From contig JBDGRE010000001.1 of NCBI GenBank assembly GCA_042218325.1, positions 132,356 to 196,355 on the forward strand: a stretch of 64,000 bases of DNA, given 5' to 3'. Source of the DNA: Candidatus Nanohaloarchaea archaeon (GTDB lineage: Archaea > Nanohalarchaeota > Nanosalinia > Nanosalinales > Nanosalinaceae). How positions within the stretch are numbered: position 1 is the stretch's first letter; each line of letters opens with the position of its first letter. Under the pieces are notes generated by a model. That model was not told the origin of the DNA. It worked only from the letters and a program-made list of their open reading frames with translations, and did no database searches. A program made the translations under genes and the position numbers. Below are positions 19,215-62,693 of this stretch, in pieces.

Positions 19215-21719
19215 CTACTTGAGACGGTAGCTTACCGCACCGCCCTTGTTTTCGACCTTTACCTTTCCCTCTCTTGCGAGCCAGCCGAGCGACTGGTGGA
19301 GTGTCTGCGCATCTATCGCGTCCTCGGTGTGCTTCAGAAGTTTCTCCGCGGTCGCCACGCCGTGCTCCTCCAGGATGCTGTAGATCTTGCCCGCGGGGCC
19401 TCCTATCATGCTCTCGTGGTCGAACTCCATGCTGCCTTCAGCCGAGTTATCCTCTGCCTCCGATACCTTGACTATCGTCTCGAGTGCGACGTCCGGTGAG
19501 ACCGATATCGCGTCGATACCTGCCTCCACGAGGAAGTCAGCGTAGCCCTCGTGAGTCGACGGTGCGTCGCCGCAGATGCCGACGTGTGCGTCTTTGGCGT
19601 GAGCCTGGCTGATGAGTCTTCTTATCGACTCCTTGACCGCAGGGTCACGCTCGTCGAACAGCTCCTTCAGCTTGTCGCTGTTCCGGTCGACCCCGAGGGT
19701 CAGCTGCGTCAGGTCGTTCGTGCCGACAGAGAAACCGTCGAACACGTCCGCGAACTCGCCTGCACGGATGATGTTCGCGGGGATCTCGGCCATGACGTAT
19801 ACATCGATGTCTCCTTCGTCGAGGCCGTACTCTTTCATCTTCGCACGCACGTTCTTGCCCTCCTCGACTGTCCGGCAGAACGGCACCATTATCGTAAGGT
19901 TGTCGAGCTCGAGCTCGTCGATGCACCGCCGCAAGGCCTGGCATTCCAGTTCGAAAGCCCTCGAGAACTGCTCGTCGTAGTAACGCGAGGCCCCGCGGAA
20001 CCCGAGCATAGGGTTCGCTTCATCTGGTTCGTACTCCTCGCCACCCTTCAGCTCCGCGTACTCGTCAGACTTGAAGTCCGATAGGCGGACGACGACCTGG
20101 TCGGGGTAGAACGCGGCACCGATCTTCCCGATACCGCTCCTCAAAGCTTCCACGTACTCTTCTTCCCGGTCATCTTCTATCAGCTTGAGCGGGTGCTCGC
20201 CCACGTGAGACGAGATTATGAACTCTTCACGGGCCAGTCCGACCCCCTCGACAGGGAGCTGTGCGACGTGGAAGACCTCGCTCGGCTCCCCGATGTTCAC
20301 CTGTACGTCAGTATCTGTTTCCGGTATCTCGTCGAGGTGATGTTCCTCGACCTCGAACTCCAGCTCGCCGTCCCATATCTTGCCAGTCGAGCTGCTGCAG
20401 TCCACGGTTACCTCCTGCTGGTCGTCCAGCTGTGACGTTGCATTTTCGGTTCCGATGACCGCCGGTACGCCGAGTTCACGGGAGACGATGGCCGCGTGAG
20501 AGGTGCGTCCGCCCTTGTTGGTTATTATCGCGCCCGCCTTCTTCATGATCGGTTCCCAGTCAGGGTCGGTCATGTCCGTTACGAGGACTTCTCCCTCCTC
20601 GAACTGGTCGATCTCCTTCGGGGACTCCAGTATGTGGGCCTTGCCAGCACCGATCTTCGAGCCGATGGCGCCTCCTTCAAGCACGACCTCGGATTCTTCT
20701 TTCATCCTGTGGTCCTTGATGACGTTCTCTTCCTCCTCCGCGTGCACAGTTTCCGGGCGGGCCTGGACGATGTAAAGCTCCCGTGTCTGGCCGTCATACA
20801 CCCACTCGATATCCATGTGCTTGCCGTAGTGGTCCTCGATACGTTCACCGTAGCGGGCGAGTTCCTTCACCTGGTTGTCGGTGATTGAGAACTTCTCCCG
20901 TTCATCCTTCGGTACCTTCTCCTTCTCGTTGTCTTCATCGCCCGAACCCCGCACCAGTTTTACCTCCTTGTCGCCGAGCTCCTTCTCTATTATGCCGAGG
21001 TTCTTCTTGAATACCGTGAACTCGTCCGGGTTGACCTCCCCCGCGACCACTAGGTCGCCGAGGCCGTACGCTGAGTTGATTGTTATGACCTCCTCGAAAC
21101 CGGAGTCCGGGTCGATAGTGAACATGACTCCTGCCGCACCAGTGTCGGAGCGGCCCATCTTCTGGATGACCGCGCTCAGCTTGACGTCGAAGTGGGAGAA
21201 GCCCTTGTCCTCCCGGTAGCTGATGGCGCGGTTGGTGAAGAGCGACGCGAAGCAATCCTTGATACGTTTTATCAGGTCCTGTTTGCCGGAGACGTTGAGG
21301 TAAGTATCTTGTTGACCGGCGAACGATGCACCGGGAAGGTCCTCCGCGGTCGCCGATGAGCGGACAGCGACCTCCGGGTTCTCGACGCCTATCTGCTCGC
21401 CGAGCTCCTCGTAGGCATCCATGAAAGCGTTTCGAAGGTCCTCTGGCATGTCGGCCTCCTGTATATGGGAGCGGATCTGCTTGCCGCGCCTCTGCAGGTC
21501 CTTCACGTCTTCAGTATCAAGGCCGTCCAGCAAGGTTTCTATCTTGTCCTTAAGGTCTGTCTCCTCTATGAAGTGATCGTACGCGCTGGCCGTGGTCGCG
21601 AAACCTGGTAGAACCGGTACGTCTATCTCGTTGTTGAGTTCGCCGAGGTTGGCGCTTTTTCCACCTACACGGTCAGTGTCGCTCGAGTCTATCTCGTCGA
21701 ACCAGAGAACCTTCTCCAT
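19215..21719 (-). CDS. ppsA: Phosphoenolpyruvate synthase with C-terminal winged-helix extension
   Basis: VGGKSANLGEL, AVRSSATAEDLPGASFAGQQDT, GGRTSHAAIVSRELG, NPMLGFRGASRY and FSVGTNDLTQ. Confidence 0.97.
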   Translation of the reverse strand: MEKVLWFDEIDSSDTDRVGGKSANLGELNNEIDVPVLPGFATTASAYDHFIEETDLKDKIETLLDGLDTEDVKDLQRRGKQIRSHIQEADMPEDLRNAFMDAYEELGEQIGVENPEVAVRSSATAEDLPGASFAGQQDTYLNVSGKQDLIKRIKDCFASLFTNRAISYREDKGFSHFDVKLSAVIQKMGRSDTGAAGVMFTIDPDSGFEEVITINSAYGLGDLVVAGEVNPDEFTVFKKNLGIIEKELGDKEVKLVRGSGDEDNEKEKVPKDEREKFSITDNQVKELARYGERIEDHYGKHMDIEWVYDGQTRELYIVQARPETVHAEEEENVIKDHRMKEESEVVLEGGAIGSKIGAGKAHILESPKEIDQFEEGEVLVTDMTDPDWEPIMKKAGAIITNKGGRTSHAAIVSRELGVPAVIGTENATSQLDDQQEVTVDCSSSTGKIWDGELEFEVEEHHLDEIPETDTDVQVNIGEPSEVFHVAQLPVEGVGLAREEFIISSHVGEHPLKLIEDDREEEYVEALRSGIGKIGAAFYPDQVVVRLSDFKSDEYAELKGGEEYEPDEANPMLGFRGASRYYDEQFSRAFELECQALRRCIDELELDNLTIMVPFCRTVEEGKNVRAKMKEYGLDEGDIDVYVMAEIPANIIRAGEFADVFDGFSVGTNDLTQLTLGVDRNSDKLKELFDERDPAVKESIRRLISQAHAKDAHVGICGDAPSTHEGYADFLVEAGIDAISVSPDVALETIVKVSEAEDNSAEGSMEFDHESMIGGPAGKIYSILEEHGVATAEKLLKHTEDAIDAQTLHQSLGWLAREGKVKVENKGGAVSYRLK

Positions 21720-21786
21720 ACCTCAGGTTTCCCGCCGGGAGGATTTAAAAGGCGCGTTGTGAGGTGGAAGTGAATAGGTCTCCGGT

Positions 21787-21916
21787 TTGCCTCCATCAGG
21801 ATGAATAACTTTTTCTGCTACAACGGCTGATGCGGCCTGATGCTTTGGCACGAACCTTTCGCATCCCGGGGTTAAGCTGTTCCAGGAAGCCCGCAGAGCT
21901 TTGTTCCCAGAGGCAA
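21787..21916 (-). ncRNA. Candidate structured ncRNA (~130 nt) of unknown family
   Basis: Closing stem TTGCCTC/GAGGCAA with inner stems CATCAGG/CCTGATG and TCCTGG/CCGGGA. G-U pairs favour the minus strand, and TTAAAG lies about 26 nt upstream. Confidence 0.55.
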
Positions 21917-21948
21917 GATGATTTTAACCCGTCTCCGTAAACTTTAAT

Positions 21949-22365
21949 GTGAAAAACAGAAGAGGACAGGCGGCGATAGAGTACATGACTGTGTTCGGTA
22001 TCGCGCTGCTGCTTTCCACACCGTTCATAATGCGGGCCCAGAGTTCCATCATGGATCTGAAGACCGGTTCGGAGATAATAGAGATGAGGGACTCGCTGAG
22101 CAAGATCGAGACGTCTGTCCAGACGGTGGGTGCGGCTGGCGAACCTGCGAGAAGGACGTTTCACGTTGAAATCCCGAGGTCAGTAGTGTCGTCAAGGATA
22201 GAAAACGATACCGTCGTATTTATACTGAGAGGCCCGGCCGGCAACTCGGATATGTCGAGGTCGTTTGAGACGAATGTAACCGGGACGCTTCCTGATACGC
22301 CGGGAATACACCGCCTTACTGTTTACGCTGAGAACGGAGCGGTGTATATAGAGGTGGTTGGATGA
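21949..22365 (+). CDS. Class III signal peptide pilin-like protein
   Basis: RRG/QAAIE followed by a hydrophobic helix. Confidence 0.85.
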   Translation: MKNRRGQAAIEYMTVFGIALLLSTPFIMRAQSSIMDLKTGSEIIEMRDSLSKIETSVQTVGAAGEPARRTFHVEIPRSVVSSRIENDTVVFILRGPAGNSDMSRSFETNVTGTLPDTPGIHRLTVYAENGAVYIEVVG

Positions 22366-43055: not shown

Positions 43056-43322
43056 AGTGGTTCCCGGGGGTGGACGCCTCCCTGCGGCTGGTACCGCGGA
43101 CTGGCCTCGGGCCCGCCACCCTCCGAACAGACTGGACGATGCTTAGGGCTGCTCCCGTCAGGGCCTGGCCCGGTTCACACCGTACAGGCTCCCGGAGGAC
43201 GCGCCGTCAGCAGCCAGCGACCACGGCCCTGGCCACAGCGAGAACGCCGCCCACCCGGTTGACGGCCCCGGCATCACGAGGATCTCCGGTTACAGGCGAC
43301 CCCAACCGCCCGGCCTACCACC
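43056..43322 (-). ncRNA. ffs: Archaeal signal recognition particle RNA
   Basis: 5' GGUGGUAGGCCGGGCGG Alu-type start and helix 8 GAACCGGGCCAGGCCC-UGAC-GGGAGCAGCCCUA. The ends pair (GGUGGU/ACCACU) and a T-run follows. Confidence 0.9.
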
Positions 43323-44810: not shown

Positions 44811-44883
44811 TGCCGGGATGGCAGAGAACGCACCTTTCGGTGCTCGATCTGCGCACCCGAGAGAAGATGCCGGGATGGCAGAG
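44811..44883 (+). repeat. 16-bp direct repeat of the tRNA-Cys 5' end
   Basis: TGCCGGGATGGCAGAG at 44811-44826 and 44868-44883. Confidence 0.9.
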
Positions 44884-44939
44884 TAGTTATGCGACCGCCT
44901 GCAGAGCGGTCGACCCGGGTGCAAATCCCGGTCCCGGCT
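44869..44939 (+). tRNA. tRNA-Cys(GCA)
   Basis: Acceptor GCCGGGA/TCCCGGC with U73, anticodon arm ACCGC-CTGCAGA-GCGGT and T arm CCGGG-TGCAAAT-CCCGG. CCA not encoded. Confidence 0.95.
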
Positions 44940-61261: not shown

Positions 61262-61627
61262 TCAATCCAGCCGGAACAGGTGCGACTTGCAACCGCAGTC
61301 GCTGCATCCGAAACCGTTTACTGGCTCGCCCACCCGGGAAACCGCCTTCGCGAGCAGACACTCGAACTCGGAGCTTTCGGGCAGCACGAGGTAGTCTACA
61401 GGCTCGGCAGCGGAGGATAGATAGTCTATATGCCAGTGCTTTTTCCCGGCGCCGGAGAGATGCCGGCCAAGCCGCTTCTCGACCGAGTTCATCGCCGAGC
61501 CGGTGTACACGTAGATGCCCGGCGGGAACCTGATTTTCCCGAGCGCTCCGACATGTATGGAAGCTTCCTCCTCCAGCCCAAGCATCAGGGCGTAGACCGC
61601 TTTCACGGTTTGAACAGTGTACCACAA
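61262..61627 (-). CDS. DUF123 GIY-YIG (Uri superfamily) endonuclease
   Basis: GIYVYTGSA...RLGRH...KHWHIDYL...EC...GFGCSDC.C.SHL. Start uncertain. Confidence 0.88.
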   Translation of the reverse strand: MWYTVQTVKAVYALMLGLEEEASIHVGALGKIRFPPGIYVYTGSAMNSVEKRLGRHLSGAGKKHWHIDYLSSAAEPVDYLVLPESSEFECLLAKAVSRVGEPVNGFGCSDCGCKSHLFRLD

Positions 61628-62476: not shown

Positions 62477-62565
62477 CGCCGGCGCTGGGATTTGAACCCA
62501 GGAGGGCCGTCACAGCCCAGCAGATCTCGAATCTGCCGCGTTCAACCAGGCTCCGCCACGCCGGC
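62477..62565 (-). tRNA. tRNA-Ser(CGA)
   Basis: GCCGGCG acceptor, anticodon arm GCAGA-TTCGAGA-TCTGC, long variable arm, T arm CTGGG-TTCAAAT-CCCAG and G73. Confidence 0.95.
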
Positions 62566-62693
62566 AGCGAACTTCTGAAAGTTCGAACATCATGCTCTGC
62601 GTCCGCGCTAGCGCAGAGCAGGCTTCAGAAGGTTCCGCCTGTTTAGCGTTGGCTCGCCTAAGCTTTTATTTAGTTAGCCGAAAGTTGTTCTCC

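Follow-up and report, generated by a model that had tools for sequence, protein, structure and literature searches.

Integrase-borne elements leave partial tRNA-gene duplicates (attachment or att sites); PMC9897764, whose reference list includes Williams 2002 and Reiter 1989, presents partial tRNA genes as the products of integrations of 9-23 kb. Another described class is formed by miniature inverted-repeat transposable elements (MITE) and repetitive extragenic palindromic (REP) repeats, which (PMC3184786, PMC11602168) are, like the cassettes reported below, short, protein-less, hairpin-forming, intergenic and variable between close genomes. Our subject is a small insertion in a 64,000-nt stretch of DNA of a Candidatus Nanohaloarchaea archaeon (the window, G000:C1:132356-196355), part of a genome of 1.07 Mb in 35 contigs that is 96% complete. 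Contigs of its relatives bear Nanohaloarchaea names, and DNA near-identical to the window was found in salt-lake metagenomes. Positions 21787-21916 of the window, between the divergent ppsA gene (minus strand) and a pilin-like operon (plus strand), had been put forward in a preliminary description as a structured RNA of about 130 nt: a novel non-coding RNA (ncRNA), a highly derived 5S rRNA or a switch-like leader of ppsA. On balance, we read this candidate as a ~125-bp insertion, part of which is a decayed and misplaced tRNA-flank hairpin cassette, and which is inert spacer DNA and no RNA gene.

The ppsA start region was fetched for 29 relatives, and in 14 of them a pilin homologue lies directly upstream in divergent orientation. 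At the other 15 loci the neighbour is different or the upstream sequence too short (L049, L056), and at L036 the query matched 521 nt upstream only (E = 0.001). The spacer between ppsA and the pilin gene is ~97-149 nt in all 14 syntenic relatives (105 nt in the same-genus genome G001; starts were adjusted from tblastn offsets, and the lengths are good to a few bases) versus 229 nt in the window. Two blocks are kept in these relatives: GTTAAAATCA, the putative pilin TATA box read backwards, ~20 nt from the pilin start, and CACAACGC..TTTTTAAAT, 24-43 nt from the ppsA ATG. The window retains both (21920-21928 and 21743-21762) with ~125 extra bases between them, a lineage-specific insertion at 21778-21902 (minus strand) whose ends, aligned by eye, are good to a few bases. 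Five metagenome loci contain both genes, and in three the spacer is 93-112 nt. The other two (L058 and L062) have spacers of 761 and 950 nt, each with an ORF of 205-221 aa for a hydrophobic membrane protein, and neither insert shows similarity to that of the window. Since two metagenome relatives carry such an ORF at this position, the intergenic spot accepts insertions and is a recurrent insertion site. The element itself is absent from the site in 14/14 syntenic relatives and in 3/5 metagenome loci, the other two holding the unrelated gene. Blastn of 21775-21915 against the 69 other genomes of the phylum gave no match at E <= 0.01, and when the intergenic region was compared with 60 relatives, the candidate part yielded only chance-level matches of 17-30 nt, the better ones being due to the pilin promoter and start.

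Runs from two studies yielded contigs covering the insertion with 0-4 differences, which shows it to be real DNA and not an assembly artefact. These contigs come from four further runs: over 21744-22300 one of 5068 nt has 3 differences and one of 5043 nt has 4, and two short ones have no difference. The sole difference listed within 21744-21948 is an A>C at 21947, which alters a TTAAAG box in runs X2 and X3, where the insert is still present. This change, 2 nt before the pilin GTG start, is found in all the contig depth of both runs. Other X2 and X3 contigs, ~79% identical, show a joint from 21773 to 21967; they may come from a co-resident relative with a shorter spacer and were not counted.

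A covariance model built from the candidate alone, with its claimed structure, served as the first search model and gave three matches of 26-30 bits, all in the sister genus g9 (G024:C9, G009:C27 and G009:C31). In a reciprocal test without the window sequence, a hidden Markov model of only the three g9 copies was run with nhmmer over the whole 1.07-Mb genome. The candidate came out on top (C1:154268-154194, window 21913-21839) with 33.9 bits and E = 1.5e-8; the second match (E = 0.015) was a lone hairpin, and the reversed genome, used as control, gave a maximum of 16.4 bits. The homologous segment, 21839-21913 (minus strand), covers about the first 60 nt of the insert and ~11 nt of flank, and is 65-75% identical to the g9 copies over 72 nt. 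As judged by its pairs, it is a degenerate copy: 14 of the 26 family pairs are retained, with 4/10 in the closing stem, 6/7 in the first hairpin (H1) and 4/9 in the second (H2). H1 (AAGCTC / GGGCTT with loop TGC, 21887-21901, minus strand; one of its six pairs is G-U) is the counterpart of the GAAGCTC..GAGCTTC module of the g9 copies and the sole family helix largely intact. The block best conserved against the g9 copies is a T-loop-like right arm (GAAAGGTTCG.GCCAAAGCA, 21841-21860, minus strand), whose inverted partner arm is missing. ARAGORN detected neither tRNA nor tmRNA in 21500-22200, and the nearest tRNAs of the window (Rfam) are at 44869 and 62477. No further copy was found in the same genome by blastn or by blastn-short/tblastx.

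For the distal half of the insertion (21778-21838, minus strand), which contains the CATCAGG/CCTGATG stem and the GAGGCAA arm, relatives were not found: nhmmer against 164 fetched loci gave self-matches only, and blastn/tblastx against the same genome chance-level matches only. With the whole insert as tblastx query, the best non-self match in the genome (E = 0.03) has stops on both sides and is spurious, with no sign of a gene fragment. A BLAST search of phages returned 15 records with the same 31-nt match (87%, E = 0.5) in Pseudomonas phage lysozyme genes, which is chance level, and one of plasmids returned no match. The insert borders show no target-site duplication, and at the distal border there is no copy of the pilin TATA flank or of a tRNA 3' end. 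The far end of the insert was also considered as a decayed tRNA 3'-end copy, and this was rejected, there being no tRNA-like match in the genome. Two small ORFs of the insert, of 42 aa (minus strand) and ~36 aa (plus strand), are not conserved and were judged spurious.

The g9 cassette is a three-way junction with a 10-bp closing stem, the 7-bp hairpin GAAGCTC..GAGCTTC and a 9-bp hairpin; the right arm of the closing stem (GGTTCGAGCC) resembles a tRNA T-loop and pairs with the upstream arm to close the junction. The g9 copies form 24-26 of the 26 pairs. Two of them begin 1-3 nt past the 3' end of a tRNA scored by Rfam, one of which is a tRNA-Met (ARAGORN), and the third comes after a T-arm-like remnant. 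In the two G009 copies (C31, L071; C27, L074) the tRNA, the closing arms and the AGCCAAAG that follows keep one orientation while a 49-nt interior is flipped; with one copy inverted, the interiors agree at 46 of 49 positions and align with a score of 41, versus -10 without inversion. G009 and G024 differ in the same manner in the loop of their second hairpin. The G009 inversion would also result from template switching where an inverted repeat is present. Covariation in the four-member family amounts to one pair changed on both sides, a score reached by 164 of 500 shuffles with only four sequences. Rfam finds nothing in the g9 relative (best E = 0.025, a miRNA model). Among genome contigs, an exact 26-mer of the cassette is confined to the two g9 contigs already known; no viral contig contains it. 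Copies of this T-shaped subfamily number one in the genome of the window and one or two in the g9 genomes.

All segments named in the preliminary description are present on the minus strand of 21787-21916: the ends TTGCCTC/GAGGCAA, TGG and GAAC with GTTC..CCA, TCCTGG/CCGGGA with a 12-nt loop, GCTC/GGGC and CATCAGG/CCTGATG. The candidate contains one GATGC and two copies of GCATC, the two G-U pairs were confirmed, and 31/31 proposed pairs are standard. The closed multi-stem fold that these segments were thought to build does not rise above chance. Its energy of -28.4 kcal/mol is ~13 kcal/mol above the minimum free energy (MFE) of -41.7 kcal/mol, which belongs to a different fold. The MFE on the minus strand has z = -0.71, 41 of 200 dinucleotide shuffles being equally or more stable, and that on the plus strand z = -0.33; six other choices of boundaries or sub-domains gave z from -0.90 to +1.09. 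The claimed 5' closing arm, TTGCCTC (21910-21916, minus strand), is ancestral flank of the pilin TATA box and lies outside the insertion, and a similar sequence follows GTTAAAATCA in insertion-free relatives (L039, L060, L046 and L028). By our own arithmetic, without a tool, about one 7-bp complement is expected by chance within ~200 nt. Rfam 15, at the gathering score, finds in the whole window only a signal recognition particle (SRP) RNA and two tRNAs, with nothing at the candidate, and at E <= 10 the region 21600-22100 gives two chance-level matches only (E = 4.2 and 6.1). No described family matches. What survives of the novel ncRNA is an element that is non-coding, forms hairpins, has relatives and belongs to no Rfam family; its 130-nt closed fold is not conserved. 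Only ~75 nt of the candidate have homologues, these fold differently, as a three-way junction, and 12 of the 26 family pairs are lost in the window copy. Among the claimed helices, the GCTC/GGGC hairpin, which H1 includes, is the sole family helix still intact, and the remaining ones are not family helices.

The window copy is thus homologous in sequence to the T-shaped cassette family defined here, and departs from it in the three-helix fold (14/26 pairs) and in the location at a tRNA 3' end. It is also unlike an att scar: it has neither a tRNA nor a flanking duplicate, and its borders show no direct repeat. The wider group of cassettes does recall integrase att sites, with an intact tRNA on one side and a direct repeat of its last ~16-24 nt on the other, in a genome with seven tyrosine-recombinase matches, one of them beside a tRNA whose 3' 15-mer recurs. 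The differences are that the cassettes are ~50-110 nt long versus 9-23 kb for the elements in PMC9897764, in which the word 'hairpin' is absent, and that they have a regular layout (inverted T-loop piece, hairpin, duplicate), tandem arrays and mirror versions at tRNA 5' ends. From a MITE the window copy differs in lacking terminal inverted repeats and a target-site duplication, the 7-bp 'terminal' complement being made of ancestral flank and the far end of the insert. Nor is it multi-copy in its own genome, the subfamily having 1-2 copies per genome, and the strong tie of its relatives to tRNA ends sets it apart from MITE and REP repeats alike. The inverted terminal repeats of parvoviruses are T-shaped hairpins that occur in flip and flop orientations. 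The g9 closing stem similarly bears two small internal palindromes, and the two G009 copies have opposite interiors relative to identical flanks. This resemblance is of shape only, as the cassettes are chromosomal, beside tRNA genes, in an archaeon and not known to act in replication.

Relatives of the cassette extend beyond g9. A model named R2, which includes the window and g9 sequences, so that their own R2 scores are by construction, gave matches of 24-34 bits in other genera, in which the two hairpins differ in sequence and still pair. Several of these lie 0-80 nt from a tRNA 3' end; at least one match (G027:C108) is in a coding-looking stretch and is probably false. L101 (G067:C26) and L104 (G004:C7) have a double hairpin in common, CTGAAAACGAAG..CTTCTTGGA.., which is conserved and has no piece of a tRNA closer than 170 nt; it may be a different element caught by R2. 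In L104 it is upstream, by ~35 nt, of a divergent gene judged by eye to resemble ribosomal protein L10/P0. The hairpin GAAGCTC-N3-10-GAGCTTC has 71 matches in 32 of 70 genomes, versus 8 for the reversed control, and 26 of 30 sampled hairpins are within 90 nt of a T-loop motif, versus 71 of 600 random windows of the same loci. A recurrent layout is observed: tRNA, short spacer, inverted T-loop piece, hairpin, and a direct tRNA copy from the T-loop to the 3' end. The duplicates comprise ~16-24 nt of the 3' end and start in the T-loop. In the genome of the window, five of the 24 Rfam tRNA matches (C31:77402, C31:74089, C1:107217, C1:201754 and C7:6236) have their last 16 nt repeated (<=1 mismatch) 54-109 nt downstream, and an inverted T-loop piece and a hairpin of the GAAAAYC..GRTTTTC type precede all five copies. 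For three tRNAs the first 10 nt recur 56-95 nt upstream, with hairpins after the copy.

The content of the cassettes also changes at a fixed position. Downstream of one tRNA-Met, 99-100% identical in six genomes, there are five different contents: the T-shaped cassette in G009, two tandem cassettes in G024, each closed by a tRNA-end copy, the same single cassette type with a tRNA-end copy in G000 and G012, which belong to different genera, another combination in G005, and no cassette in G001, of the window's genus. This turnover looks like the pattern of mobile or recombination-prone DNA. Mini cassettes of this kind are not described for Nanohaloarchaeota in the literature covered, which included passages of 10.1101/2025.02.15.638363 and PMC9897764; the supplements, outside that scope, may list tRNA fragments.

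Further observations concern the tRNA genes of the window and its genome. At the tRNA 44869-44939 (plus strand) the first 15 nt are duplicated 57 nt upstream (44812-44826), followed by the hairpin GCACC-TTTC-GGTGC (44830-44843), a 5'-side mirror of the layout. The hairpin CGAACTT-TCAG-AAGTTCG (62568-62585, minus strand) ends 2 nt before the 5' end of the tRNA 62477-62565 (minus strand). Near-identical hairpins precede other tRNAs (G000:C31:77402, G009:C31) and the inverted form is found after tRNA 3' ends or their copies (G024, G005); therefore leader and trailer could pair with each other. Only 24 Rfam tRNA matches, 23 of them over the cut-off, were obtained from this 96% complete genome. Many have long insertions (matches of 132-190 nt), and several further 15-mers of tRNA 3' ends seem to belong to tRNA genes that went undetected and are interrupted more than once. 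Among the seven tyrosine-recombinase matches, the gene C30:24022-24531 lies just downstream of the tRNA C30:24977-25122, whose 3' 15-mer recurs 22.6 kb away; C30:2398-25122 is likely an integrated element of the ordinary kind. A Pfam search for GIY-YIG in five genomes gave nothing above the cut-off. An ORF of 121 aa at 61262-61627 (minus strand), ~0.9 kb from the tRNA 62477-62565, has a match below it (20.1 versus 22.6 bits) and is presumably of the archaeal DUF123 type. The SRP RNA (43056-43322, minus strand) scores best with the bacterial large SRP model (77.1 bits); a lower match of the same clan was left out.

On both sides of the insertion the genes and their presumed promoters are intact. 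ppsA (19215-21719, minus strand) encodes a phosphoenolpyruvate synthase of 834 aa, with Pfam matches to PPDK_N (6.8e-127), PEP-utilizers_C (4.1e-60) and PEP-utilizers (2.1e-29). The block TCACAACGC .. TTTTAAAT (21743-21762, minus strand), which resembles a B recognition element (BRE) and TATA box, lies 24-43 nt before the ATG, with sequence and distance kept in syntenic relatives, and probably functions as the ppsA promoter. The preliminary description was correct in placing the ppsA ATG (21719) 68 nt from 21787, in giving ppsA its own TATA (21743-21750) and in noting a TTAAAG box (21942-21947) that ends 26 nt before 21916, upstream of the candidate. The first gene of the pilin-like operon (21949-22365, plus strand, 138 aa) has a GTG start, no Pfam match, and an N-terminus that reads as a class III signal peptide. 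The same GTG-encoded residue begins its homologues in relatives, and the signal-peptide-like N-terminus is common to them (tblastn). The second gene has a DUF7266 match under the Pfam cut-off. From its position and the rules for archaeal promoters, GATTTTAAC (21920-21928, plus strand), ~21 nt before the GTG start at 21949 and kept as a motif in syntenic relatives, is the putative TATA box of the operon, and its transcript would be leaderless or nearly so. An ORF of 122 aa antisense to the pilin gene, neither conserved nor matched in Pfam, was judged spurious.

The sequence of events that we favour for the insertion can be outlined as follows. In the lineage of the window, a piece of a cassette together with ~60 nt of untraced DNA would have entered between the promoters of ppsA and the pilin operon. 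The part nearest the pilin promoter is a worn-down, ectopic copy of a small protein-less hairpin cassette, of a type that in related Nanohaloarchaeota sits just downstream of tRNA genes. There, one arm complementary to a T-loop and another that resembles a T-loop enclose one or two perfect hairpins, giving a T-shaped three-way junction. Decay since the insertion would have removed the left arm and the second hairpin of the window copy. Both promoters were spared, so the insertion most likely persists as inert spacer. The adjoining GGGTTAAAATC, in the pilin TATA region, resembles a T-loop, which makes an off-target insertion next to it attractive; capture during break repair fits as well, and the copy may have arrived either way. 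It is possible, if doubtful, that we are dealing with the off-target insertion of a mobile cassette, and that Nanohaloarchaeota have a whole class of these, hitherto undescribed and distinct from ordinary integrase scars, each only ~50-110 nt long, built of hairpins and protein-less. Their usual targets would be the T-loop or 3' end of tRNA genes and sometimes the 5' end, and each would bring its own copy of the tRNA end, which leaves the gene complete and displaces the old end outward. One of them would have landed beside GGGTTAAAATC and then decayed, and a hairpin- or cruciform-based mechanism, with some enzyme, would be suggested by the flip/flop interior seen in the T-shaped variant.

Several observations weigh against the inert-cassette interpretation. 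Its homology to the g9 cassette depends on one small family, with three copies in two genomes, and the part 21903-21913 of the nhmmer alignment overlaps the presumed ancestral flank, so the left boundary and the 'lost left arm' are uncertain. Half of the insertion (21778-21838) is DNA without a traced origin. That the cassettes are mobile is deduced from patterns of presence and absence, with no enzyme identified. The insert has no variant in four runs, with 3-4 differences in the flanking ~385 nt of the same contigs, which points weakly toward constraint (p ~0.2 by our own arithmetic). Its G+C content (52.8%) is near the genome mean (55.4%), unlike the neighbouring spacer, where it is lower, and the retained H1 has a G-U pair workable only on the minus strand. 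The family is presumptively mobile, and the insertion probably untranscribed or functionless.

A rival reading is a young, species-specific small RNA of the minus strand, transcribed for example from the A/T-rich boxes 21942-21947 or 21920-21928 read in reverse, and exapted from a cassette remnant. We regard this as unlikely. The proposed helices do exist, two G-U pairs favour the minus strand, a TATA-like box stands 26 nt upstream, the insertion is listed without variant in contigs of runs from two studies, its G+C is gene-like and H1 has been kept. However, the fold is no better than that of shuffles, the claimed structure lies 13 kcal/mol higher than the MFE, the fold of the family is decayed in this copy, and no homologue of the whole element was seen in the genomes searched. 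The change at 21947 alters the proposed box in X2 and X3, and both A/T boxes are kept in relatives without the insertion, so they are explained by the pilin promoter and start. No T-run follows the candidate on the minus strand, as read directly, and no oligo-T terminator comes before the ppsA TATA. That the candidate is a ppsA leader of a riboswitch-like or attenuator kind, or else a highly derived 5S rRNA, is extremely improbable, although it is 68 nt upstream of ppsA on the same strand and, with its ~120-130 nt and the branched fold drawn earlier, near 5S rRNA in size and shape. Because the conserved BRE/TATA block is downstream of the candidate, between it and the ATG and as far from the latter as one would expect if the transcript were leaderless, the candidate would fall outside the ppsA transcript and is probably not its leader; it is, in addition, absent from all relatives. 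No Rfam riboswitch and no 5S rRNA (RF00001) match appears at E <= 10 in 21600-22100, the conserved 5S motifs are lacking, as had already been pointed out in the preliminary description, and the normal 5S gene whose presence was to be checked is found 2.5 kb beyond the window (G000:C1:198881-198996, 68.8 bits).

Other explanations treat the insertion as DNA. It could be filler from break repair or recombination, in which case the similarity to the cassette would reflect a copied fragment and not cassette activity; this differs from the interpretation we favour only in the manner of arrival, and we hold it to be rather unlikely. A partial cassette without its left arm, the other half of the insertion without relatives, borders without target duplication, and a flank GGGAAC that resembles the GAAAC junction of the cassette, a possible microhomology, all agree with it. 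On the other hand, the present genome holds no donor copy, the next nhmmer match (E = 0.015) covering the hairpin only, and the T-loop-like neighbour GGGTTAAAATC would fit a targeted off-site insertion. Alternatively, the 125 bp could be a cis-acting element that spaces or insulates the divergent promoters or carries a binding site, and so gives species-specific regulation of ppsA and the pilin genes. Its place exactly between two conserved promoter blocks, neither of them disturbed, and the lack of variants in the runs compared would agree with this, as would the fact that the spot takes insertions elsewhere, namely the 205-221-aa ORF of two metagenome relatives. It is nonetheless quite unlikely: the insertion contains no repeated or palindromic operator-like site beyond chance and is not conserved, relatives manage with spacers of ~93-149 nt, and no test run here speaks for an effect.

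As an RNA gene the candidate falls away, and with it a new 5S rRNA, riboswitch or conserved small RNA. What remains is a dated, clean case of a small hairpin cassette landing between two promoters and breaking neither. For annotation, this means that a fold alone is no ground for calling such remnants ncRNA genes. The candidate itself is of modest interest, and the class of cassettes behind it merits a separate study: many tRNA genes of the phylum are followed, and some preceded, by hairpin cassettes and a tRNA-end copy, whose content differs between genomes even where the tRNA is identical. Should they form a separate class of mobile elements, they would bear on the under-calls and mis-calls of tRNA finders, as in this 96% complete genome with its 24 Rfam matches, 23 over the cut-off, on the question of which enzyme recognises T-loop DNA, and on the turnover of ultra-small archaeal genomes.

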